From NCBI GenBank assembly GCA_041309305.1, contig JBFYZW010000069.1, positions 1 to 17,880 of the forward strand: a stretch of 17,880 nucleotides of DNA. The letters run 5' to 3'. Shown here one piece after another: positions 868-12,020 of this stretch. Position 1 is the first letter of the stretch. The number at the start of each line of letters is the position of its first letter. Source of the DNA: Deltaproteobacteria bacterium. Lineage in GTDB: Bacteria; Myxococcota; XYA12-FULL-58-9. Under the pieces are notes generated by a model. That model was given only the letters and a program-made list of their open reading frames with translations, did no database searches and was not told where the DNA came from. The position numbers and the translations under genes were made by a program.

Positions 868-1986
868 ATGATCACGACCCGATGGGCTATCTGTTTGGTT
901 TCGCTCTGCTCTTGCGCCGCGAACTACAAGACGGTGGCGGTCGAGAGCGCCCCGCCGCGGCTGGTCGCCGCCCCGGCCGCGGGCAGCAGGATCCAGCTCC
1001 TCTCGCTCAACGACGCGGAGGTGCGCGGCGAGCTCGCCTCGCCCTCCGGCAGCCCGATCGAGGAGAAGATCATCGTCGAGGCCACCGGGCGGCTGTTGGT
1101 CGACGTGCTCGGCGAAGCGGTGCCCAGGGTGCGGGCGCTGGTCCGCGAGCTGGGCGGCAAGCTGGCGCGGGACGAGATCTACAGCGACAGCGGCCGGGCG
1201 ATGTTTGTGCTGCGCCTCCCGCCGGCGCAGGTCGACCCGTTCTTCGACCGCCTCGGCGAGCTCGGCGAGCTAGCCGACCGCAACGTCGTCGCCACCGACG
1301 TGACGCGCCAGTTCAACGACACGACCATTCAGCTGGACAACCTGCACAAGGCGCTGGCTCGCTATCAGGAGATCCTCGCCGCGGCGACCAAGGTCGAGGA
1401 GATGCTCGCGGTCGAGGCGCAGCTCACCCGGGTCAAAGGCGAGATCGAGCGGCTCAAGGGCGAGCTGCAGTTTTTGAGCGACCGGGTCAACCTGTCGACC
1501 ATCACCCTGCACGTCTACCCCAAGGACGCCGGCGCGACCTTCGCGCCGCGGGCCAAGCTCCACCCCGGGTTGCGCTACGGCTTCGCCGGCACCTTCGCGC
1601 GCGGCAAGGAGGCGGCGCTGTGGTACGGGCCGGGGCTGTCGTTGCACTTCTTCCGTCACTTCCACGCCGAGGTCGACCTGCTCAGCGACATCGAGCGCGA
1701 GCCCTGGCGCGCCGACGCGATCGTCGCGACCGTGGGCGGCGAGACCTACAGCGACTTCCTCGGCCGCGGCAAGCGCACCTGGCTGAACCCCTACGTCGGC
1801 GCGCAGCTCGGCTACGCCCGACTCGGCGAGCGGGACTTCTTCGCCATGGGGTTGGCGTTCGGCCTCGAGCTGTACAAGAGCACCTACCTGCTGGTCGATC
1901 TCAACCTGCGCGGCCAGGTGTTGTTCGGCGAGGGGCCGAGCCAGCTGGCGCTGCAGCCGACCCTCGGCGCGAACATCGCCTTCTGA
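868..1986 (+). CDS. Putative lipoprotein, DUF4349-like middle region (coiled coil followed by the STITL motif) with a C-terminal OMP-like beta-rich extension ending in Phe
   Basis: ATG at 868 preceded by AGGAGA (857-862). N-terminus MITTRWAICLVSLCSCAAN carries a lipobox-like L-C-S-C. The segment EEMLAVEAQLTRVKGEIERLKGELQFLSDRVNLSTITLHV resembles the conserved DUF4349 core. The Gly/aromatic-rich C-terminal ~170 aa with alternating hydrophobics ends ...GANIAF, a C-terminal aromatic typical of OM beta-barrels. Confidence 0.6.
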   Translation: MITTRWAICLVSLCSCAANYKTVAVESAPPRLVAAPAAGSRIQLLSLNDAEVRGELASPSGSPIEEKIIVEATGRLLVDVLGEAVPRVRALVRELGGKLARDEIYSDSGRAMFVLRLPPAQVDPFFDRLGELGELADRNVVATDVTRQFNDTTIQLDNLHKALARYQEILAAATKVEEMLAVEAQLTRVKGEIERLKGELQFLSDRVNLSTITLHVYPKDAGATFAPRAKLHPGLRYGFAGTFARGKEAALWYGPGLSLHFFRHFHAEVDLLSDIEREPWRADAIVATVGGETYSDFLGRGKRTWLNPYVGAQLGYARLGERDFFAMGLAFGLELYKSTYLLVDLNLRGQVLFGEGPSQLALQPTLGANIAF

Positions 1987-1987
1987 G

Positions 1988-3121
1988 TTACCGGCTCGTC
2001 TCGCCGTCGACCGCGTCGCCGAAGGCGGCCAGCTCGTGCGGCGTGGCGCGGTCGGGTTGGGCGACGAACACCGGGCCGCCGAGCAGGTACCAGGCGAGCT
2101 GGGTGAGGCCGAGCAGGAGCGAGGTCGGCACCGATCGCTCTGGCGCGACGCCGACGAGCGCGAAGAAGTAGGCGAAGGCGCCCTCGCGCATTCCCCAGCC
2201 GCCGGGCAATAGCGGCACCGACGCGGCGAGGAAGCACAGCGGCGTGACCGCGAAGTAGTGGCTGAGCGGGTTGTCGATGCCGAGCGCCCGGCCGATCATG
2301 TAGGTCTGCCAGATGATGCCAGCGTGGTTGGCGACCGAGAGCAGCACCGCGATCGCCACCGTCCCGGGGGCGTCGCGGTAGACTGTGATCGCCTGGTCGA
2401 CGCGCTGCCAGAAGCGGCTGAACGGCAGGCGGGCGAGCAGCGCCTCGACGCGCAGCAGGCGGCGCAGGCGGCGGGAGAGCAGCACGCAGCCGATGAGCGT
2501 GCCGGCGCCGAAGACGGCGTAGACCATCCCGGCGACCGGCGCGAAGCCCGGCTCGTCGAGCAGCCCGGTGACGATCAGCGCCCCGAGCAGCGCCAGGCCG
2601 AACAGCCCGACGAAGCGGTCGATGAACACCGAGAGGAACATCTTGTACGGCGCGCGCGAGCCGCGGGCGACGTAGAAGGCCTTGACCAGGTCTCCGCCGG
2701 TCAGCCCCGGAGCGACGGCGTTGAAGAAGAAGCCGATGTAGGTGAGCCGCAGCGCGTCGGCGAACGAGATCGGCAGCGCGATGGCGCGCAACAGCAGCCA
2801 CCAGCGCACGATCGAGATCAGGGTGATCGGCCCGAAGATGAGCAGCGCCCAGAGCAGAAGCGCCTGATCGGCGCCACGCACGGTCGAGAGGACGCCGCGC
2901 TCGACCGTCGGGCTGCCGGGCTGCCCGCGGGTGAAGCGCTCGGGCGCGGCCGCGCCGCTGGCGCGGAACTCGACCTCGGCGGCGGAGATCGCGACGATCT
3001 CGCCGGTGAGCAGGCGCCCGTCGGGGAAGCTCAGCTGATCGCGGTATTGGATCCGGGTGAGGACGAAGACCGCGAGCGCGACGCCGAGCAGTCGGAGCAG
3101 GAGACGGACGGCGCGCTTCAC
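1988..3121 (-). CDS. UPF0104 / lysylphosphatidylglycerol-synthase-TM-like (flippase-like) integral membrane protein
   Basis: 377 aa with multiple TM helices. Duplicated hallmark motifs NAVAPGLTGGDLVKAFY and LLPGGWGMREGAF (P-G-G-x-E/D pattern of PF03706 / MprF N-terminal domain relatives). ATG at 3121. Confidence 0.75.
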   Translation of the reverse strand: MKRAVRLLLRLLGVALAVFVLTRIQYRDQLSFPDGRLLTGEIVAISAAEVEFRASGAAAPERFTRGQPGSPTVERGVLSTVRGADQALLLWALLIFGPITLISIVRWWLLLRAIALPISFADALRLTYIGFFFNAVAPGLTGGDLVKAFYVARGSRAPYKMFLSVFIDRFVGLFGLALLGALIVTGLLDEPGFAPVAGMVYAVFGAGTLIGCVLLSRRLRRLLRVEALLARLPFSRFWQRVDQAITVYRDAPGTVAIAVLLSVANHAGIIWQTYMIGRALGIDNPLSHYFAVTPLCFLAASVPLLPGGWGMREGAFAYFFALVGVAPERSVPTSLLLGLTQLAWYLLGGPVFVAQPDRATPHELAAFGDAVDGETSR

Positions 3122-3217: not shown

Positions 3218-3961
3218 GTGCGCTGGCGCGTCGTTGCAACCCTCACGGCTGTTGGCGCGCTCGCGGCGGGCTGCCTCGAGCGTAGCCCGACGCGGGAGAG
3301 CTGCAGCGGCGATCCGTCCGGGGGTGACCCCGCCGGCGCGGTGGCGGTGCAGCCGGCCTCCTCCTCGGCCAAGTTCGAGGACGCGCAGGTCGTCTCGTGG
3401 TCGCAGGGGGTGCTCGAGGCCAACGCCGCGCGGTTGCTGCTCGTCGTCTGCAACACCGACGCGGCCTCGATCCACCCGGCCGCGGTGACTGCCGGCGGTG
3501 CGCCGCTCGAGCTCGTCGTCGCGCAGGACGCGCCGAGCTTCGGCGCCCTCTCGGTCTGGATGCTGCCCGGAGTGGCGACGGGGAGCTACCTCATCGAGGC
3601 GGTCTACCCCTCCCCGGTGCCCGGGCTGGCCCGCTCGCTCGTTCTGGAGCAGGTGGCGGCCGAGGTTCCGGTGCAGCTCTTCGTCGGCGGCTCCCACGCC
3701 GGCGGCGGCGCGTTCTCCGTCGGCAGCCGGGCGGGGGATCTGCCGCTGGCGCTGGTCTCCTGGGGCAACAACCAATCGACGAGTTGGCTCGGCGGCGAGC
3801 TGGAGCTGTGGGACGACACCGACCCGGGGCCGGCGAACTCGCTCGGCGGCGCCGCGGCGACCCTGCCCGGCGCGCCGGTGGTCGACTTCGCCTGGCAGAC
3901 GACCTCGGGCTCCTCGACCACTGGCGCGCACCTCGGCCTCAACGTGCGCAGGGCGCCCTGA
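3218..3961 (+). CDS. Hypothetical lipoprotein
   Basis: GTG at 3218 preceded by GGGAGG (3204-3209). N-terminus VRWRVVATLTAVGALAAGC has the LAAGC lipobox. The upstream in-frame part of track ORF 2258..3961 is a low-complexity antisense artefact over the UPF0104 gene. TGA stop at 3959-3961 shares one nucleotide with the next ATG (TGATG). Confidence 0.6.
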   Translation: MRWRVVATLTAVGALAAGCLERSPTRESCSGDPSGGDPAGAVAVQPASSSAKFEDAQVVSWSQGVLEANAARLLLVVCNTDAASIHPAAVTAGGAPLELVVAQDAPSFGALSVWMLPGVATGSYLIEAVYPSPVPGLARSLVLEQVAAEVPVQLFVGGSHAGGGAFSVGSRAGDLPLALVSWGNNQSTSWLGGELELWDDTDPGPANSLGGAAATLPGAPVVDFAWQTTSGSSTTGAHLGLNVRRAP

Positions 3962-4473
3962 TGAGCGGCGCGCCGCTCGATGCGCTGGTGGTCTTCGGTT
4001 GTCGGGTGATCGACGGCCGTCCGTCGCCGGCGTTGGTGCGGCGCCTCGTGCGCGCCGCGGCGGCGGCCGGCGAGTATCCGGCGGCGGTGCTCGTCTTGTC
4101 GGGGGGCGACGCGCATGGCGTCGCCGAGGCCGAGGTGATGCGCGACGATCTGGTCGCCCGGGGTGTGGCGCCGGCGCGGCTGCGCTGCGAGCGGCAGGCG
4201 CGCTCCACCGCGGAGAACGCCGCGCGGGTCGTGCCCATCCTCGCCGAGCTCGGCGCGCGGCGGATCGGCTTGGTCACCGATCCCTATCACGTGCGCCGCA
4301 GCGCCGTGCTCCTGCGCGCCGCGGCGCGCCGGGCTGGACTCGGCGGGCTCACGGTCGTGCCGCTGCCGGCGGTCGAGAGCAAGTCGACGTTGGCCCGGCT
4401 CGGCTTGTGGATTGAGGAGAGCGTGAAGCTGGCGGTGTCGCTGGTGCGCGGGCCGCCTACAACCTCTGCTTGA
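3961..4473 (+). CDS. DUF218 / YdcF-ElyC-SanA family protein
   Basis: [16 protein letters not shown]...[44 protein letters not shown] matches the DUF218 core (SGG ... EA..M ... GV ... E..S.sT.ENA). ATG at 3961 overlaps the upstream stop, indicating translational coupling. Confidence 0.75.
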
Positions 4474-5494
4474 GGTAGAAGTCGACCATCTCGGCCTTGC
4501 TGCGCGCCTTGATCTTGCTCGCCTGCCCGGCCTGGCCGAAGGCGATCATCCGCTCCTTGCACACCTGCTTCATCGCCTCGCGCGCCGGCTTCATGTAGTC
4601 GCGCGGGTCGAACTTCTCCGGCGTCTCGGCGAGGACCTTGCGGATCGCGCCGGTGATCGCCAGCCGGTTGTCGGTGTCGACGTTGATCTTGCGTACGCCG
4701 TGCTTGATGCCCCGCTGGATCTGCTCGAGCGGCACGCCGAAGGTCGGCTTCAGTTTGCCGCCGTACTTGTTGATCACGTCCTGCAGCTCTTGCGGCACCG
4801 ACGACGAGCCGTGCATCACCAGGTGGGTGTTGGGCAGACGCTTGTGGATCTGTTCGATCACGCTCATCACCAGCACGTCGCCGGTGGGCTTCTTCGAGAA
4901 CTTGTAGGCGCCGTGCGAGGTGCCGATTGCCACCGCCAGCGCGTCGACCTTGGTGTCGGCGACGAACTGCTCGGCCTGCGCCGGATCGGTCAGGTGCTCC
5001 TTGGCCTGGTCGGCCGAGAGGCCGGCGCCGTGGCCGTCCTCGATGCCGCCGAGCGTGCCGAGCTCGCCCTCGACGGTGACGCCAAAGGCGTGGGCGACGT
5101 CGACCACCTCGCGCGTGACCTTGACGTTGTAGTCGTAGCTCGAGGGGGTCTTGCCGTCAGCCTCGAGCGAGCCGTCCATCATCACCGAGGTGAAGCCCTG
5201 CTCGATGGCCGAGAAGCAGGTCTGCGGGCTGTTGCCGTGGTCCTGGTGCATCGCGATCGGCAAACGCGGGTGCAGCTCGGCGGCGGCGAGCATCAGGTGC
5301 TTGAGGTAGGCGTCGTTGGTGAACTGGCGTGCGCCGCGCGACGCCTGGATGATCACCGGCGAGTCGGTCTCCTCGGCCGCCGCCATGATCGCCTGGATCT
5401 GCTCCATGTTGTTGACGTTCAGCGCCGCCACGCCGTAGCCGTTCTCGGCCGCGTGATCGAGCAGGACGCGCATCGGGATGAGAGGCATGGGCAA
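4457..5494 (-). CDS. fba: Fructose-1,6-bisphosphate aldolase, class II (cyanobacterial/CbbA-like subtype)
   Basis: 345 aa, near-collinear with class II FBAs: [30 protein letters not shown]..., [63 protein letters not shown] on the minus strand at 5501-5506, before ATG 5494. Confidence 0.96.
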
Positions 5495-5603
5495 CTCCTT
5501 CTGGCTGAGTCGTCAGGGGTCTTTGGTGGGGCTCAATGTACGACTCCGGGGCGGTCAGGGGAAGGCCTTGCCGGGGCGCGGCCGCGCGTGGTACGCGGTG
5601 GGG

Positions 5604-5954
5604 ATGCTGCAGCGCAAGGAGACGCCGGTCTGGGATCGCCGCCGGTTCGTCCGCCGGCAGTTCATCCAGACCGTCGATGTGCGCTCGTCGACGCGGCCGC
5701 CGCTGAGCGGGCGGAGCCGCGACCTCAGCCTCGGCGGCATCCGCCTGACCTTGACGCAGCCGCTCAGCCCCGGCGAGCAGGTCAACGTCGGGTTGTCGTT
5801 CCCGAGCGAGCTGCGCGTCGCCTTCGACGCCGAGGTGCGCAACATCGACCATGACGCGCCGGCCGAGGCGTACGTCGCCGGGCTGCGCTGGCTGTCACCG
5901 GCGGAGGAGGACGTGGAGATCTTGCGCTACCTGCTCGAGGACAGCGCCGCCTGA
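5604..5954 (+). CDS. PilZ-domain protein (putative c-di-GMP receptor)
   Basis: RRRFVRRQF (RxxxR-type) and DLSLGGIRL (D-x-S-x-G-G) PilZ signature motifs, about 116 aa. The first in-frame ATG not overlapping the divergent fba start is 5604. Track ORF start 5478 would overlap fba. Confidence 0.65.
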   Translation: MLQRKETPVWDRRRFVRRQFIQTVDVRSSTRPPLSGRSRDLSLGGIRLTLTQPLSPGEQVNVGLSFPSELRVAFDAEVRNIDHDAPAEAYVAGLRWLSPAEEDVEILRYLLEDSAA

Positions 5955-5973
5955 GCGTCGGAACGCGCCCGTG

Positions 5974-6180
5974 CTAGGACACCGGGCGGACGGCCTGCGC
6001 GTGCGGGCCGTGGGCGCCGGGGATGCTCTCGAACTCGACCAGCTGCCCTTCGTGCAGCGTGCGCTCGCCGTCGTGATCGAGCGCGCTGGCGCGCACCAGC
6101 ACGTCGTCGCCGCCGTCGAGCGGCGCGATCATGCCGAAGCCCTTGCGTGGGTTGAACCACTTCACCGTGCCGGTCGCCAT
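5974..6180 (-). CDS. cspA: Cold-shock protein, CspA family
   Basis: MATGTVKWFNPRKGFGMI... (RNP1-like KGFGFI motif), 68 aa. ATG at 6180 with GGAGGG 8 nt upstream on the minus strand. The track ORF extends to 6234 but the conserved N-terminus begins at M(6180). Confidence 0.9.
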   Translation of the reverse strand: MATGTVKWFNPRKGFGMIAPLDGGDDVLVRASALDHDGERTLHEGQLVEFESIPGAHGPHAQAVRPVS

Positions 6181-6275
6181 GCCTGTCAGCCCTCCGAGCC
6201 GCCCGTCGAGCAACGGGCAGCGTGACGATCGCACGGCCGATCGGTCGGTTCAAGGGCCAACTGCCCGGCTCGGTG

Positions 6276-7889
6276 TCAGCGCTGCTGCTGCGGCGGCGGC
6301 GGAGCCTTCGGCGTCGGCTTGGGCGGCTGCCACGAGCCGGTGCCGGTCTGGCCGTTGCCCTCGGGCGTGGCGATCTGCCCCAGGTACCCGGGCAGCTCGA
6401 CGCCGGCCATCTGCGCGACGTCGTGGATCGGCGGCAGGCTCTTGATCAGCGACGAGACGAAGTTCGCGGTCGACGAGCCGGTGCCGGCGGCGGCGGCGCT
6501 GTCCCAGACGGTGACCTTGTCGATCTTGAGGTTCTGGATCGCCTCGACCTGACGGGCGACGATCGCCTCGATCTTCTCGACCATCAGCAAGGTCGCCGCG
6601 GCGCGGGCGTCGCCGGCGCAGCTCTGCACCAGCGACTGGTAGCCGTGCGCCTTGGCCTCGAGCACCTGCTTGATGCCCTTGGCCTCGGCCTCGTACTTCA
6701 TCAGGATCGCGTCCGCCGCGCCGGCGGCGACGCGCCGTTGGCGCTCGGCCTCGGCGGCGGCGTCGATCTCGATCTTCTTCTTGTCGATCTCCTTGCGCAC
6801 CACCTCGGCGGCGTTGAGCCGCTCCTGCTCGGCGCGGGCCTGCGCCTTCTGGATCTCGACCTCGGCCTCGCGCTTGGCCACCTCGGCGCGGCGGGCGGCG
6901 TCGGCCTGTTTGACCGCGAGGACGGCGTTATAGTCGGCGACGCTGGCGCGCGACTCGTTCTCGCCCTTGATCGCCAGCGACTCCTGGTTCCAGACGTAGA
7001 CCCGCTGGTCGGCCTCGGCCGCCTTCTTGCCCTTCTCCGCCGCGGCCAGGTTCTCGGCGACGCGGATCTCCTGGGTCTTGGTCGCCTCGGCCTCGCCGAT
7101 GCGGGCCCCGGACTCCTGCTGCTGGACGAAGATGCGCCGGTCGGCCTCGGCCGCCTTCTTGCCCTTCTCACCCTGGGCGACGTTCTCGGCGACCTTGATC
7201 TCCATCTCGCGCACCGCCGAGGCCTGGCCGATCTCGCCGAGCTTCATCTGCTCGGCGACGTCGATCTTGGCCTTGTTGATCGCCTCGGCCGCCGCCTTCT
7301 TGCCGATCGACTCGATGTAGGTCGACTCGTCGGTGATGTCGGTGATGTTGACGTTGATCAGGTTCAGGCCGATCTTGTTCAGCTCCGGCTCGACGTTCTT
7401 GCGGATGGCGGCGAGGAACGACTCGCGGTCCTGGTTGATCTGCTCGATGGTCAGCGACGCGACGGTGAGGCGCAGCTGGCCGAAGATGATCTCGCGGGCC
7501 ATGCTCTCGATCTCGCCGACCGTGAGCTCCAGCAGGCGCTCGGCGGCGTTCTGCATCACCCCGGGCTCGGGGCTGATGCCGACGGTGAAGGTCGAGGGGA
7601 CGTTGATGCGGATGTTCTGCAGCGACAGGGCGTTCTGCAGCGGGATGGGGATGGTGATCGGCGTCAGCGACATGTAGCGGTAGTCTTGGATGAGCGGCAG
7701 AACCAAGACGCCACCGCCGTGGATGCAGCGCGCCGCCTGACCGCCGGAGACCTTGCCGAAGACGACCAGGATCTTGTCCGACGGGCAGCGCTTGTAGCGG
7801 CTGGCCAGGTAGAGGAGCATGAAGACGACGAAGATGACCGCCGCGCCGATGGCGACGATCCAGATCGACGTGACCTCTCTCGACAGCAT
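6276..7889 (-). CDS. floT: Flotillin-like protein (SPFH/band-7 domain, FloT/YuaG-like)
   Basis: 537 aa. An N-terminal TM helix is followed by an SPFH domain, a long Ala/Glu/Lys-rich coiled-coil (EA repeats) and a Pro-rich tail. RBS AAAGGA 5-6 nt before ATG 7889, 27 nt after the nfeD stop. Confidence 0.9.
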   Translation of the reverse strand: MLSREVTSIWIVAIGAAVIFVVFMLLYLASRYKRCPSDKILVVFGKVSGGQAARCIHGGGVLVLPLIQDYRYMSLTPITIPIPLQNALSLQNIRINVPSTFTVGISPEPGVMQNAAERLLELTVGEIESMAREIIFGQLRLTVASLTIEQINQDRESFLAAIRKNVEPELNKIGLNLINVNITDITDESTYIESIGKKAAAEAINKAKIDVAEQMKLGEIGQASAVREMEIKVAENVAQGEKGKKAAEADRRIFVQQQESGARIGEAEATKTQEIRVAENLAAAEKGKKAAEADQRVYVWNQESLAIKGENESRASVADYNAVLAVKQADAARRAEVAKREAEVEIQKAQARAEQERLNAAEVVRKEIDKKKIEIDAAAEAERQRRVAAGAADAILMKYEAEAKGIKQVLEAKAHGYQSLVQSCAGDARAAATLLMVEKIEAIVARQVEAIQNLKIDKVTVWDSAAAAGTGSSTANFVSSLIKSLPPIHDVAQMAGVELPGYLGQIATPEGNGQTGTGSWQPPKPTPKAPPPPQQQR

Positions 7890-7916: not shown

Positions 7917-8555
7917 TTAGAGCGGCTTGACGACCAGCACGTTGCCGTCGGTGAGGCTCACCACCTTCACCCGCGCGTCGCTGGATATCTCACTCTTGTC
8001 CTCGGCGGTGGCGTCGAGCACCTTCAGGTAGCCCTGCACCATCACCCGCACCTTGCCGATCTGCCCGGCCGGGATCTTGAGGTAGACTGTCCCGTCCTGG
8101 CCGATGGCGGCGCGCAGGTCGACGTTGCCGGCCGCCTGCATGCCGGAGAAGAAGCGGAATAGCCGATCGACCACCCAGACGAGCCCGAGCCCGGCCACCG
8201 AGCCGCCGATGAGCGCGGTCAAGGCGCCCGACTGTCCGCGGCTGAGCGCCAGGCCGACCAGGCCGAACATCATGAAGAAGCCGGTCAGCCCCTGGAAGGA
8301 GAGGAGCTTGAAGCTCATCATCTCGTGCACCGACGCGGCGTCGCCGTGGTCAACGTGGCCGCCGCCGTCGTCGGCGTGGCCGCCGCCGTGGTCAGCGTGG
8401 CCGCCGCCGTCGACGCCGTGGTCGCCACCGCCCTCGTCGCCGCCCATGCCGACGAAGGCCATCACCAGCCGGATGGCGAACAGGCCGCCGCCGACCGCCG
8501 CGGCGCCGAAGAAGATCTTCTCGAGCACCGACAGACTCTCGAGCCAAGGCATCAT
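7917..8555 (-). CDS. NfeD/YuaF-like membrane protein (C-terminal OB-fold) with His/Asp/Gly-rich repeat loop
   Basis: 212 aa with three TM helices, then a C-terminal beta-rich segment DGTVYLKIPAGQIGKVRVMVQGYLKVLDA...VKVVSLTDGNVLVVKP typical of the NfeD OB-fold. It sits immediately upstream of flotillin, the conserved yuaF-floT order. GGAGAGGGGG RBS before ATGATG at 8555. Confidence 0.8.
   Translation of the reverse strand: MMPWLESLSVLEKIFFGAAAVGGGLFAIRLVMAFVGMGGDEGGGDHGVDGGGHADHGGGHADDGGGHVDHGDAASVHEMMSFKLLSFQGLTGFFMMFGLVGLALSRGQSGALTALIGGSVAGLGLVWVVDRLFRFFSGMQAAGNVDLRAAIGQDGTVYLKIPAGQIGKVRVMVQGYLKVLDATAEDKSEISSDARVKVVSLTDGNVLVVKPL
8334..8438 (-). repeat. Tandem 21-nt repeats (5 units, 4 well conserved) inside nfeD, encoding a (G)H-x-D-x-G-G heptad loop
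   Basis: Plus-strand units GTGGCCGCCGCCGT[C/G]G[T/A]C[G/A]GC repeat at 8355, 8376, 8397 and 8418, with a degenerate copy at 8334. Translated on the minus strand: DEGGGDH / GVDGGGH / ADHGGGH / ADDGGGH / VDHGDAA. Confidence 0.85.
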
Positions 8556-8639
8556 CGTCGACCCCCTCTCCGAGCGACCGAGGCTTATCGCGCCAGCCGG
8601 GACAACAGCAACCAGCGCCCCGCTTTCGCCGCTATCTGT

Positions 8640-8727
8640 GTTCTAGTGTGTATGGTTACATAATATTACACACCATGTCAACACAAATCATTTTTCCTGT
8701 CCCTCACGGGGCGCATCATTATATAGA
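8640..8727. promoter_or_regulatory. AT-rich (about 35% GC) intergenic island with inverted repeat GTGTGTA-N14-TACACAC; likely divergent promoter/operator for the nfeD-floT operon and the RHH gene
   Basis: The only AT-rich stretch in a roughly 70% GC window. IR arms at 8646-8652 and 8667-8673 flank a central TAATATTA palindrome (8661-8668). TATATA at 8720-8725 lies only 8 nt before ATG 8734. CATAAT at 8659-8664. Confidence 0.5.
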
Positions 8728-8733
8728 GTGCGC

Positions 8734-9069
8734 ATGAGTGCACGCGAGACGAAGCCGAAGAGCCCGTACCGTCGCGTCAACATCATGATCCGCGAGGATC
8801 AACACGAGGCGCTCAACGCGCGCGGTCTGAACGTCTCGGGGCTGATCCGCGACCTGCTCGGCGACTACCTGTCGCAGAACGTCATCCACCTGCAGGTCGG
8901 CGAGGAGACGCGGCGCATCTACGACCTGGTGGTTGCCAACACTGGCTCGTCCGACCGGGAGATCGAGACCCACCTGCGCACCGCGCTGGCGAAGGTGCTC
9001 GAGGACAAGATCGCCGAGATGCAGAAGCTGCACCAGAAGCTGGTGCGCGAGGGCGCGCACCGCGCCTGA
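8734..9069 (+). CDS. Ribbon-helix-helix (CopG/Arc/MetJ-like) DNA-binding protein with a C-terminal helical extension
   Basis: [33 protein letters not shown] fits the RHH beta-strand/helix-helix pattern. 112 aa from ATG 8734, with an alternative in-frame GTG at 8728. The stop is 11 nt before the pgm ATG, with GGAGGAGG between them. Confidence 0.65.
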
Positions 9070-9080
9070 CGGAGGAGGCG

Positions 9081-10733
9081 ATGCCGTTGCACCCTGGAGC
9101 CGGTCGTCCGGCGCCGCGCGAGAGCCTGGTCAACGTCCCGCGCCTGGTCAGCGCCTACTACGCTTACGCCCCCGACCCGGAGCGCGCCGAGCAGCGGGTG
9201 AGCTTCGGCACTTCCGGGCACCGCGGCTCGGCCTTGAAGGCCTCCTTCAACGAGGCGCACATCCTCGCCATCACCCAGGCGATCTGCGACCACCGGCGCG
9301 CGCACGGCGTCGACGGCCCGCTGTTCGTCGGCAAGGATACCCACGCCCTCTCGGAGCCGGCCTTTGTCACCGCCCTTGAGGTGCTGGCTGGCAACGCGGT
9401 TGAGGTGTGCATCGACGCGGCCGACGGCTACACGCCGACGCCGGTCATCTCGCACGCCATCCTGACCCACAACCGCAACCGGCGGGCGCACCTCGCCGAC
9501 GGCGTCGTCATCACGCCGTCGCACAACCCGCCCGAGGATGGCGGCTTCAAGTACAACCCGCCGCACGGGGGCCCGGCCGACACCGCGCTGACCCGGGAGA
9601 TCGAGCAGGCGGCCAACGCCCTGCTCGCCGACGGCAACCGCGCGGTGCGCCGCGTCCCGTGGGCGCGTGCCCTCACCGCGCCCTCGACGCGGCGGTACGA
9701 CTACGTCACGCCCTACGTCACCGACCTCTCGGCGGTCATCGACCTCGAGGCGATCCGCGCCGCGAAGTTGAAGATCGGCGCCGATCCGATGGGCGGCTCC
9801 GGCATCGCCTACTGGCGGCCGCTGGCCGAGCGCTTCGGCCTCGAGATCGAGGTGGTCAACCAGGTGGTCGACCCGACCTTCTCGTTCATGACCCTCGACA
9901 GGGACGGCAAGATCCGCATGGACTGCTCGTCGCCCTACGCGATGCAGAGCCTGATCGCCCTTGGCGACCGCTTCGACATCGCCTTCGGCAACGACACCGA
10001 CTACGACCGCCACGGCATCGTCACCCGCTCGCGCGGGCTGCTCAACCCGAACGCCTACCTGGCGGTGGCCATCTGGTATCTGTTCCAGCACCGCCCCGGC
10101 TGGGGTGAGCGGCCGGCGGTGGGCAAGACGCTGGTCTCGAGCTCCCTCATCGACCGGGTCGCCGCGGCGCTCGGCCGCCGGCTGTGCGAGGTGCCGGTGG
10201 GCTTCAAGTGGTTCGTCGAGGGCCTGGGCGATGGTTCGCTCGGCTTCGGCGGCGAGGAGAGCGCCGGCGCCTCGTTTCTGCGCCGCGACGGCACCGTGTG
10301 GACCACCGACAAGGACGGGATCATCCTCGACCTGTGCGCCGCCGAGATCTGCGCCGTGCTGGGCAGAGATCCGGGCGAGGTCTACGGCGAGCTCGTCGCC
10401 CGCTTCGGCGAGTCGTGCTACGAGCGGCTCGACGCGCCGGCGAGCGGGGCGCAGAAGAAGGTGCTCGCCTCGCTGTCGCCCGCGCAGGTGACCGCGACGA
10501 CGCTGGCCGGCGAGCCGATCACCGCCAAGCTGACCCGCGCGCCGGGCAACGACGCGCCGTTGGGCGGGCTGAAGGTGACGACCGCGAACGGCTGGTTCGC
10601 CGCCCGGCCGTCCGGCACCGAGGATGTCTACAAGATCTACCTCGAGAGCTTCCGCGGCCCCGAGCACCTCGCCCAGCTCAAGGAGGAGGCCCAGGCGCTC
10701 GTCGCCCGCACCTTCGCCGCCGCCGGCGCCTGA
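9081..10733 (+). CDS. pgm: Phosphoglucomutase (alpha-D-glucose-1,6-bisphosphate-dependent)
   Basis: 550 aa collinear with E. coli Pgm: [10 protein letters not shown] active-site Ser loop, [48 protein letters not shown]. Confidence 0.97.
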
Positions 10734-10784
10734 CCCTTGTCGCCGGCCCGCCGGTGCTCATATTCCAATGCGGAGGAGCTCGCC

Positions 10785-12020
10785 GTGCTGGGGCCGATGT
10801 TCACCGCCTTCGTCGCCGAATTGTGGGCGATCACGCTCGAGCTGGCCTGGCCGCTGTTGCTCGGCCTCTTGCTCGCCGGCCTCCTGCACGTGCTGTTGCC
10901 CACCGCCTTCGTGCGCCAGCAGCTCTCCCGCCCGACCTTCGGCAGCGTGCTGCGCGCGGTGCTCATCGGCGTGCCGTTGCCCTTGTGCTCCTGCGGCGTC
11001 GTGCCGACCGCGATCGGCCTCAAGCAGCAGGGCGCGTCGCGCGGCGCGGCGACCGGCTTCCTCATCAGCACGCCGCAGACCGGCGTCGACTCGGTGCTGG
11101 TCAGCGCCACCTTCCTCGGCTGGCCGTTCGCGCTGTTCAAGGTGGCTGCCGCGGCGCTCACCGGCCTCATTGGCGGCGCGCTGGTCAACCGCCTCGAGCG
11201 CGGCGCGCCGGCGCCGGCGCCGGCGGAGCAGGAGCTGGTCGCCGCGCCCCGACGCCACCCGCTCGAGGTCGTGCGCTACGCGGTCTTTGATCTCCTGGCG
11301 ATGATCGACCTGTGGCTAGTGGTCGGGGTCGGTTTCGCGGCGTTGCTCGGCGTGCTGCTCCCGGACGACTTCTTCGCCCGCCACGCCTGGACCCAGGGGC
11401 TCGGCGGTATGCTGCTCGTTTTGGTCATCGCCTTGCCCCTCTACGTCTGCACCACCAGCTCGGTGCCGATCGCCGCGTCGCTCATCGCCGCCGGGATGCC
11501 GGCCGGCGCGGCGCTGGTCTTCTTGATGGCCGGGCCGGCGACCAACGTCGCGACCCTCGGCGCGGTCTGGCGTGGCCTCGGTGGCCGGGTGCTCGCGGTC
11601 TACCTCGGCACCGTGACGGTGATGAGCCTCGGCCTCGGCTGGCTGTTCGACTTCGTGCTCGCCGGCGCGCGCGCACCGCACCACCTGCACGCGCACGGCG
11701 CCTCGTGGCTCGAGCAGGGCAGCGCGGCCCTTCTGGTGGCGCTGCTCGCCTTTCTGCTCGGACGCCGTCTTTGGCTGCGGCTGCGGTCGGCCGCGCCTTT
11801 GACCCAGGAGAGCGCGATGGATCTGACCCTCAAGGTCGACGGGATGACCTGCCAGCACTGCGTCGCCAACGTCAAGCGGGCGCTCGAGGCGGTCGACAAG
11901 GTCGCGGCCGCGGAGCCGGACCTGGCGACCGGGCGGGTCGTCGTGCGCGGCGAGCAGCCCGAGGTGGCCAAGTTGATCGCCGCGGTCGAGGCGGCCGGCT
12001 ACCGCGCCGCCGCCGGGTGA
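10785..12020 (+). CDS. ArsP-type permease (PF03773/DUF318) with conserved CSC motif, fused to a C-terminal heavy-metal-associated (HMA) domain
   Basis: Two-repeat polytopic membrane protein. PLPLCSCGVVP resembles the TPFCSCS motif of the ArsP organoarsenical efflux permease. The C-terminal DGMTCQHCVANVKRALEAV carries the GMTCxxC HMA metal-binding motif. Start chosen at in-frame GTG 10785 (GGAGGAG at 10772-10778, 6-nt spacer). The first in-frame start codon after the upstream stop is at 10737, immediately after the pgm stop. Confidence 0.8.
   Translation: MLGPMFTAFVAELWAITLELAWPLLLGLLLAGLLHVLLPTAFVRQQLSRPTFGSVLRAVLIGVPLPLCSCGVVPTAIGLKQQGASRGAATGFLISTPQTGVDSVLVSATFLGWPFALFKVAAAALTGLIGGALVNRLERGAPAPAPAEQELVAAPRRHPLEVVRYAVFDLLAMIDLWLVVGVGFAALLGVLLPDDFFARHAWTQGLGGMLLVLVIALPLYVCTTSSVPIAASLIAAGMPAGAALVFLMAGPATNVATLGAVWRGLGGRVLAVYLGTVTVMSLGLGWLFDFVLAGARAPHHLHAHGASWLEQGSAALLVALLAFLLGRRLWLRLRSAAPLTQESAMDLTLKVDGMTCQHCVANVKRALEAVDKVAAAEPDLATGRVVVRGEQPEVAKLIAAVEAAGYRAAAG

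Follow-up and report, generated by a model that had tools for sequence, protein, structure and literature searches.

An isolated AT-rich island in a 17,880-nt stretch of contig JBFYZW010000069.1 from the Myxococcota metagenome-assembled genome of a Deltaproteobacteria bacterium (hereafter the window, whose positions serve as coordinates throughout) is probably the divergent promoter-operator region of an undescribed ribbon-helix-helix (RHH)-family regulator that would repress a flotillin operon. The island lies between the nfeD-floT operon and a divergently oriented gene for an RHH-like protein (Table 1). It holds an array of 7-bp sites, here called heptads, which recur upstream of orthologues of the RHH-like gene and in the window lie across a predicted promoter facing nfeD-floT. 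Because the conserved repeats accompany the RHH-like gene and a divergent promoter occupies the same DNA, an operator controlling the divergent operon is the best reading. The conservation and phasing of the heptads, their overlap with the promoter and the family-level RHH similarity of the neighbouring protein are established by the sequence analysis described below.

The island is the lowest-GC 88-nt stretch of the 17.9 kb, with 38.6% GC in a window of 71.7%; the next lowest has 52%, and 88-nt stretches of the window average 71.6% (standard deviation 5.6). A sequence-only reading of this DNA had placed an island of about 35% GC at 8640-8727, and the GC minimum is indeed there, at a somewhat higher GC content. 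A perfect 8-bp GC-rich inverted repeat, GCGCCCCG at 8615-8622 and CGGGGCGC at 8707-8714, flanks the whole island with its arms 84 nt apart; it has no obvious counterpart in the related loci L074 or L033 (L-numbers designate the loci that were compared with the window).

Within the island, the sequence-only reading had singled out an inverted repeat, GTGTGTA-N14-TACACAC, whose arms are found at 8646-8652 and 8667-8673 with 14 nt between them. The palindrome TAATATTA, which had been put at the centre of this repeat, actually occupies 8661-8668 and overlaps the right arm. GTGTGTA occurs twice in the whole window, as these two arms, against 0.32 copies expected, and at least two copies appear in 7 of 200 shuffles. 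The proposal that a single inverted repeat serves as operator holds in so far as operator-like repeats are present, but the unit is an array of heptads in 10-bp phase, H1 to H4, and the inverted repeat corresponds to H2 and H4. The array, at 8637-8672, is a pseudo-palindrome of two rightward heptads followed by two leftward ones, three of them strong (H2-H4) and one weak (H1). H1 scores below 4 bits with the position weight matrix (PWM) described below and is counted solely for its 10-bp phase and its mirror position to H4. In an alignment of the window with its closest nfeD-type relatives, L074 and L033, H2 is invariant and the GTTACA of H3 is kept in both relatives; the centre of H3 lies 9 bp from that of H2, the usual spacing of a convergent pair, and H4 follows H3 at 10 bp. 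The heptads and the -35 element beside them (TCAAC) form the main conserved intergenic block of this three-way alignment. In L074, the closest relative of all, the third heptad is flipped, so that the inverted repeat is lost and the heptads are kept, and a search of 73 loci for GTGTGTA-N8-20-TACACAC returned nothing besides the window's own copies. On this comparison, what is conserved is not the inverted repeat itself.

About 70 related loci were fetched. The comparison covered about 60 orthologous loci from metagenome-assembled genomes (MAGs) of Myxococcota and Bdellovibrionota, with the 200 nt upstream of each orthologue. The functional unit is the heptad TRTGTAT, the core of the PWM of these upstream regions. 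TGTGTAT is found in 24 of 59 unique upstream regions and in 9 of 1116 control 200-nt windows; for GTGTGTA the figures are 19 of 59 and 5 of 1116. PWM sites occur at 11.6 per kb upstream of the orthologues and at 0.32 per kb elsewhere, an enrichment of about 36-fold that spans genomes of 29%-73% GC, and clusters of sites outside the RHH upstream regions are almost absent in about 230 kb. The sites are found in both direct and inverted orientation. The distance between the centres of adjacent heptads is 9-11 bp in 28 pairs, 19-21 bp in 20 pairs and about 30 bp in others, with few pairs in between, and this 10-bp phasing would put the heptads on one face of the helix. Phasing of this sort is typical of cooperative protein binding, not of RNA structure. 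The sequence of the heptads also varies together with the protein. Family members carrying Asn in their predicted beta-strand (xR[VIL]N) are mostly accompanied by TGTGTA/TACACA/TGCGCA heptads and those carrying Ser (xR[IV]S) by TATGTA/TACATA/TATATA heptads, in both cases regardless of genome GC, so that across these sequences the form of the heptad changes with the Asn/Ser residue in the strand predicted to read the DNA. A GC-rich variant, (A/G)TGCGCA, sits at the same promoter positions in L004, L040/L064, L041, L076 and L078, all from Asn-type lineages.

The sequence-only reading had reasoned that the promoter of nfeD-floT must lie in the same region, and a predicted minus-strand promoter is found inside the island, with the conserved order of a TTGAC -35 element followed by a heptad. 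Of 63 upstream regions, 33 contain GTCAA (TTGAC when read on the minus strand), as do 12% of control windows (p=1e-14), and in most loci a heptad begins 1-3 nt past it. A minus-strand promoter passing strict sigma70 criteria was called in 32 of 62 regions, including L074, and 22 of these promoters overlap a heptad. In the window, H4 falls in the promoter spacer, H3 on the -10 element, and H2 and H1 on the predicted start region; with heptads over spacer, -10 and start, occupancy of the array should repress nfeD-floT. The further suggestion that one operator could serve both transcription units is borne out on one side, as the array lies over the divergent nfeD-floT promoter, but the putative promoter of the RHH-like gene is not overlapped. 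In L040 and L041 the two promoters stand back to back (TTGACA on the minus strand, TTGACC on the plus strand), each with one copy of the heptad in its spacer.

Two other ways of explaining the DNA upstream of nfeD were weighed against this promoter. One is a sigma54 promoter for nfeD-floT (CGGGGC-N5-TTGC, 8622-8608, minus strand), as in PspF-type Psp systems, with the island as an enhancer or IHF-type site. With 3 mismatches, the sequence retains the essential GG and GC of the -24/-12 consensus, and Myxococcota are rich in sigma54 activators. Matches at that stringency are, however, no commoner than chance would have it (122 found, 150 expected), the GG-to-GC spacing is 2 nt short in L074 as judged by eye, no gene for an enhancer-binding protein is among the window open reading frames (ORFs) scanned, and a conserved sigma70 -35 element is present instead. 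We regard a sigma54 promoter as highly improbable and rejected it, as the match is neither above chance nor conserved. The other is an element acting as RNA, be it a small RNA, an attenuator or a hairpin within the 5' leader of nfeD. On the minus strand, 8600-8733 does fold better than its shuffles (z=-3.1, with 0 of 200 as good), yet the plus strand does not stand out (z=-0.85), and there is no Rfam match: the whole window searched at the gathering threshold and 8450-8850 searched at E<=10 returned chance-level matches to eukaryotic miRNAs and snoRNAs only, and no tRNA or tmRNA was found. The hairpin formed by the inverted repeat lies upstream of the predicted nfeD start, the flipped third heptad of L074 abolishes the pairing while the heptads persist, and the GC-rich stem at 8600-8636, which belongs to the z=-3.1 fold and would lie in the nfeD leader, is not conserved in L074 or L033. 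Sites in both orientations at 10-bp spacing are, moreover, a signature of DNA binding. With stems not conserved and the repeat hairpin upstream of the predicted start, an RNA element was rejected as hardly credible.

The presumed binder is the product of the adjacent gene. Its family comprises 81 clusters, all from metagenomes or MAGs, named hypothetical and without a precomputed Pfam domain. Searched against Pfam, 61 of the 81 members match CcdA (best E 6e-5), 12 match RHH_1 and 4 match ParG. An hhalign comparison with CcdA gave a probability of 76% and an E of 2e-5 over the strand, helix 1 and the beginning of helix 2, a PDB profile search returned CcdA first (2adl), and the secondary structure predicted by AlphaFold2 (AF2) is compatible with RHH, a weak structural indication in the same direction. 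The RHH identity assumed by the sequence-only reading is thus upheld by the family-level profile matches, but the window protein alone scores 16.9 bits in Pfam, below the cut-off of 22.4 bits. The phased heptad arrays upstream of the gene in most orthologues are in keeping with RHH-type repeated short sites near the regulator's own gene. Residues 50-111 form a second well-conserved helical region, about 60 aa long and of unknown function; an internal duplication of the RHH domain, sought by hhalign of the N-terminal against the C-terminal half, is unsupported (E 0.14, probability 0.4%). A type II antitoxin of the CcdA kind was considered and rejected. The gene that follows is pgm in the window, in L074 and in L076, with various others elsewhere; clustering of 30 genome-contig loci gave no family-wide conserved downstream gene, and the gene differs in the other loci read as well. 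With no conserved toxin partner, the RHH-like protein is not an antitoxin. The MAGs that carry the family are labelled Myxococcota, Bdellovibrionales, Bacteriovoracaceae, Halobacteriovoraceae and Oligoflexia, with single ones labelled Micavibrio or Alphaproteobacteria (L026, L029) and Acidobacteriota (L005); most of these host lineages are predatory.

Beyond the closest relatives, synteny with floT or pgm is not conserved, and it was set aside as an explanation of the element for that reason. What is conserved across loci is the class of the divergent gene. In about 36 loci this is a PspC-domain gene, usually followed by a PspA/IM30 gene, and in 1 locus it is pspA directly; an SPFH/Band_7 gene takes the position in 6 loci, nfeD/yqiJ-floT in 3 (the window, L033 and L074), an ICMT-type gene in 2, and a BI-1/YccA-type gene and a DUF3592 membrane protein gene in 1 locus each, the last being L026, with TATATA-rich heptads. 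Heptads are present in nearly all of these classes and also where there is no divergent gene at all (L007), and hence go with the RHH-like gene whatever its neighbour. In L031 (2647-2989) a phased heptad cluster with centres at 2661, 2671 and 2691 directly adjoins the start of an SPFH gene and is separated from the RHH-like gene by a small open frame, apparently for a hydrophobic membrane peptide. This suggests an operon of a small transmembrane protein and the RHH-like protein in this lineage. A genomic link of PspA with band-7/flotillin and YqiJ/YuaF genes has been published (PMC11237479; see also PMC8581546). The survey PMC11237479 and a second systematic PSP survey mention RHH factors in other operon types only and contain no mention of Myxococcota or Bdellovibrio, and a literature search that included them, limited in extent and no proof of novelty, found no description of the RHH-like family.

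Several observations weigh against an RHH-bound operator for the flotillin operon. The inverted repeat, taken alone, is within chance: 305 of 2000 dinucleotide shuffles of 8556-8733 (about 15%) contain a perfect inverted repeat of 7 bp around a loop of 3-30 nt. In itself the repeat is therefore not significant, and the significance of the element comes from its conservation across loci. The island might then be an ordinary AT-rich divergent promoter region, as is common in high-GC genomes, holding a repeat that arose by chance in low-complexity DNA, as it does in about 15-20% of shuffles. We consider this very improbable in view of the enrichment upstream of orthologues in genomes of such different GC, the 10-bp phasing and the top rank that an independently trained PWM gives to the array. 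That second PWM was made because the main one was trained on the same upstream regions that it scores and is partly circular; trained on 31 distant low-GC loci only, it has its single best match in the window at 8643-8656 (13.0 bits), the next scoring 6.9. The loci are also phylogenetically related, so the p-values overstate their independence, and the Asn/Ser covariation largely follows the split of the two phyla and may reflect few evolutionary events. In the promoter, the window's -10 element matches 3 of 6 positions and fails the strict promoter criteria. A generic promoter and terminator scan of 8400-8900 called nothing; with a -10 too weak for the scanner, the promoter is recognised only through homology with other loci, AACCAT being positionally homologous to the L074 element TTGACT-17-AACAAT, which does pass the strict sigma70 criteria. 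Finally, binding by the RHH-like protein, repression, autoregulation and a leaderless start are predictions from sequence.

Also on that side, some orthologues lack the sites. A Bdellovibrionales subgroup (L014, L015, L017-L019, L021, L023 and L024) has no heptads of at least 7 bits, and L076 is without strong ones. In the subgroup either the operator has diverged or the role has changed. Its loci have a divergent gene for a 289-aa protein of unknown function followed by one for a 167-aa protein, and downstream lie a glutamyl-tRNA-reductase-like gene and a further conserved gene, hemC/D-like by eye. These orthologues without strong heptads, together with the weak RHH identity of the single window protein and the fact that its binding is something we infer, would fit an array that is real and yet bound by another conserved factor such as a global regulator, with the RHH-like gene as a neighbour or co-regulated target. 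That arrangement seems unlikely to us: the heptads follow the RHH-like gene irrespective of the neighbouring gene, their clusters are nearly absent from the roughly 230 kb of flanks, which would not be expected of a global regulator, and the heptad variant tracks the Asn/Ser residue of the strand predicted to read the DNA.

At the start of the RHH-like gene, as the sequence-only reading had described, TATATA at 8720-8725 lies 8 nt before the ATG, being followed by GAGTGCGC and then by the ATG at 8734, and no recognisable ribosome-binding site precedes it: none of the Shine-Dalgarno (SD) cores GGAG, GAGG and AGGA is there, only AGAG. An SD sequence is clear at the neighbouring floT, nfeD, pgm, efflux and cold-shock genes, five in all. 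An in-frame GTG is present at 8728. The putative promoter reads CTGTCC-17-TATATA-8-ATG in the window as compared with TTGTGC-17-TATGAA-8-ATG in L074, and L033 has TTGCGC at the aligned -35 position. TATATA lacks the T at position 6; the alternative -10, CATTAT, which carries A at position 2 as well as T at position 6, ends 11 nt before the ATG and 5 nt before the GTG. L033 keeps the upstream promoter elements, but its ATG is about 28 nt further on and has an SD. The distant orthologue L007 shows a leaderless geometry (TTGACA-17-CATACT-7-ATG). A leaderless mRNA for the RHH-like gene, as the sequence-only reading proposed, would fit the window and L074; it is a tentative proposal that we think slightly doubtful, and the normal SD leaders of about two thirds of the orthologues count against it.

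The strong heptads are about 60-95 bp upstream of this start codon and do not overlap the putative promoter, so direct autorepression is not evident in the window, a further point against the operator model; a weak heptad, TATATAG (6.2 bits), overlaps the -10-like element. The expectation that the RHH protein regulates itself through its own promoter thus finds no match in the window itself, but the corresponding geometry is present in L007, L034-36, L045 and L079. This arrangement could also mean that the array is mainly an upstream activating or architectural site for the RHH-pgm promoter, with the protein an activator or dual regulator and any effect on nfeD-floT secondary. With a start near 8734 the strong heptads would be at about -60 to -95, a typical activator position, and about 15 bp separate the two back-to-back -35 elements. 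The majority of known RHH regulators act as repressors, however, and across the family the heptads lie in a promoter spacer or on a -10 element, which is repressor geometry: in most loci this is the divergent promoter, and in L007 and L034-36 it is the RHH gene's own. We accordingly think activation quite unlikely and prefer repression of the divergent operon.

Among known systems the closest analogy to an array-bound RHH repressor is the omega repressor (ParB of pSM19035), an RHH dimer that binds 7-bp sites arranged in direct and inverted arrays over promoters and needs several adjacent sites for stable binding (PMC9499535). The likeness lies in the arrays of 7-bp sites, for example two rightward then two leftward. 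The heptads of omega are, however, contiguous with a 7-bp period and differ in sequence, whereas those at this locus have a 10-bp period; omega serves plasmid partition and copy control together with a ParA partner, whereas this locus is chromosomal (fba, pgm and floT are nearby) and no ParA is among the window ORFs scanned; and the RHH-like protein has the extra conserved C-terminal domain of about 60 aa. ParG with parH of TP228 likewise pairs an RHH protein with an array of short degenerate boxes, with AT-rich spacers (PMC3130281). The resemblance extends to the weak Pfam ParG match of 4 of the 81 family members, but the tetramer boxes, the plasmid centromere and the ParF partner have no equivalent here. 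The N-terminal RHH domain of CcdA, the F plasmid antitoxin, is the best sequence match of the family, yet there is no toxin gene at this locus and the C-terminal part of the RHH-like protein is unrelated to the CcdB-binding tail of CcdA. The family stands apart from repressors of the Arc/MetJ/CopG type: it lacks a dedicated Pfam model, its operator and its predicted regulon (Psp, SPFH) are different, and its proteins, of about 105 aa, possess a second conserved domain. Known regulators of Psp and flotillin genes (PspF-sigma54, LiaRS, ClgR, PadR-like proteins, and sigmaW for B. subtilis floT) are likewise encoded next to the pspA/pspC or flotillin genes that they control; the locus described here is distinguished from them by the predicted RHH fold and a predicted promoter of the sigma70 rather than the sigma54 type. 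An RHH repressor with an array operator is a well-known kind of system, and it is the RHH-like family, its operator and its link to a Psp/SPFH regulon that appear to be new.

Table 1 Features of the proposed divergent promoter region and the adjoining genes (window coordinates)
Feature	Position	Strand	Evidence and remarks
Intergenic region between the divergent units	8556..8733	.	ORF list, Pfam, gene calls on source contig
AT-rich island	8638..8725 (8640-8727 in the earlier bounds)	.	38.6% GC; GC profile
Heptad H1, TGTGTTC	8637..8643	+	Weak copy, 5/7 identical to H2; starts exactly 10 bp before H2
Heptad H2, TGTGTAT	8647..8653	+	13.3 bits; within left arm; overlaps predicted minus-strand start region
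Heptad H3, TATGTAA (plus: TTACATA)	8656..8662	-	10.3 bits; overlaps TG and -10 of minus-strand promoter
Heptad H4, TGTGTAA (plus: TTACACA)	8666..8672	-	10.8 bits; within right arm; promoter spacer, 3 nt past -35
Predicted -35 TTGACA, promoter facing nfeD-floT	8676..8681	-	Perfect hexamer; conserved in three-way alignment
Predicted -10-like AACCAT, promoter facing nfeD-floT	8652..8657	-	18-nt spacer; TG at 8660-8659 (extended -10 type)
Weak -35-like CTGTCC, putative promoter of RHH-like gene	8697..8702	+	17 nt before TATATA; inference only
-10-like CATTAT/TATATA, candidate (near-)leaderless promoter	8717..8725	+	Aligned with TATGAA-8-ATG of L074
nfeD/yqiJ-like membrane protein gene, first of divergent operon	7917..8555	-	Weak Pfam NfeD match
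Flotillin gene floT, second of divergent operon	6276..7889	-	Pfam Band_7 (SPFH) 3.8e-29, Flot 2.5e-6
RHH-like gene, 111 aa	8734..9069	+	N-terminal CcdA-like RHH; conserved C-terminal helical domain
Phosphoglucomutase gene pgm	9081..10733	+	TIGR01132 at 7.6e-278; strong SD; starts 11 nt past RHH-like stop

The genes around the island are those listed in Table 1, and the L074 orthologue of the nfeD/yqiJ-like gene has a YqiJ_N match (6e-11). Downstream of the RHH-like gene, pgm probably shares its transcript. The same gene order is found in L074 (pgm 1403-3049) and L076 (pgm 3357-5006), with gaps of 11-35 nt, and is limited to these three closest relatives, the window included. It suggests a lineage-specific RHH-pgm operon, which would put a sugar-phosphate (envelope precursor) enzyme under the same control region. 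The nfeD/yqiJ-like gene contains a 21-bp tandem repeat of about 4 copies with 83-89% matches (8342-8430, minus strand), which codes for a stretch rich in Gly, His and Asp (GGGHADH-like) within the protein's N-terminal half; the NfeD-like orthologue of L033 has an acidic Gly/Asp/His-rich insert too. At 10737-12020, 2 kb away, is a gene for Cu/Zn efflux that has an HMA domain, and with such a gene nearby a metal-binding role of the stretch is conceivable. Just past floT (5478-6234) are a PilZ-domain gene (5478-5954, plus strand) and a cold-shock-domain gene (5974-6180, minus strand), and in L076 a cold-shock gene is near the RHH-like gene as well.

These features would combine into the following mechanism. 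The operator would consist of the four 7-bp sites, one helical turn apart, at 8637-8672, and dimers of the adjacent RHH-like protein would bind them from one face of the DNA, probably cooperatively. The target would be the sigma70-type promoter facing nfeD-floT, with its -35 at 8681-8676, its TG-extended -10 at 8657-8652 and a start near 8645, and, judging from this geometry, occupancy of the array would block RNA polymerase and repress the flotillin operon. The RHH-like gene, probably together with pgm, would be transcribed from the separate weak promoter CTGTCC-17-TATATA, starting at or within a few nt of the ATG at 8734 and yielding a (near-)leaderless mRNA, the least certain step of the scheme. 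More widely, the family would be dedicated to regulating genes of membrane stress and membrane organisation (pspC-pspA, SPFH/flotillin, nfeD/yqiJ, BI-1), and its conserved C-terminal helical domain is a candidate for oligomerisation or signal input. A bolder form of the proposal, which is speculative and in our estimate somewhat unlikely, makes the family the dedicated master regulator of the pspC-pspA, SPFH/flotillin-NfeD and BI-1 modules in Myxococcota, Bdellovibrionota and a few other MAGs, mostly predatory, where it would replace PspF-sigma54 or LiaRS. The C-terminal domain would then sense a membrane signal, for instance when PspC, PspA or NfeD sequesters it where the membrane is damaged, and the phased operator would be released.

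To our knowledge, the control of Psp and flotillin/SPFH modules is understood for a few model groups only. Enterobacteria use PspF with sigma54, Firmicutes use LiaRS and sigmaW, and Actinobacteria use ClgR. For the window alone, the operator reading gives a sensible annotation to an otherwise unexplained AT-rich patch. That the same regulator stands beside pspC/pspA in some genomes and beside flotillin/SPFH genes in others lends independent genomic support to the view that these genes form one functional system. For two large, mostly uncultured phyla, the analysis offers a candidate regulator, a defined operator (TRTGTAT in 10-bp phase) and a predicted mechanism, promoter occlusion, by which these membrane modules may be controlled.

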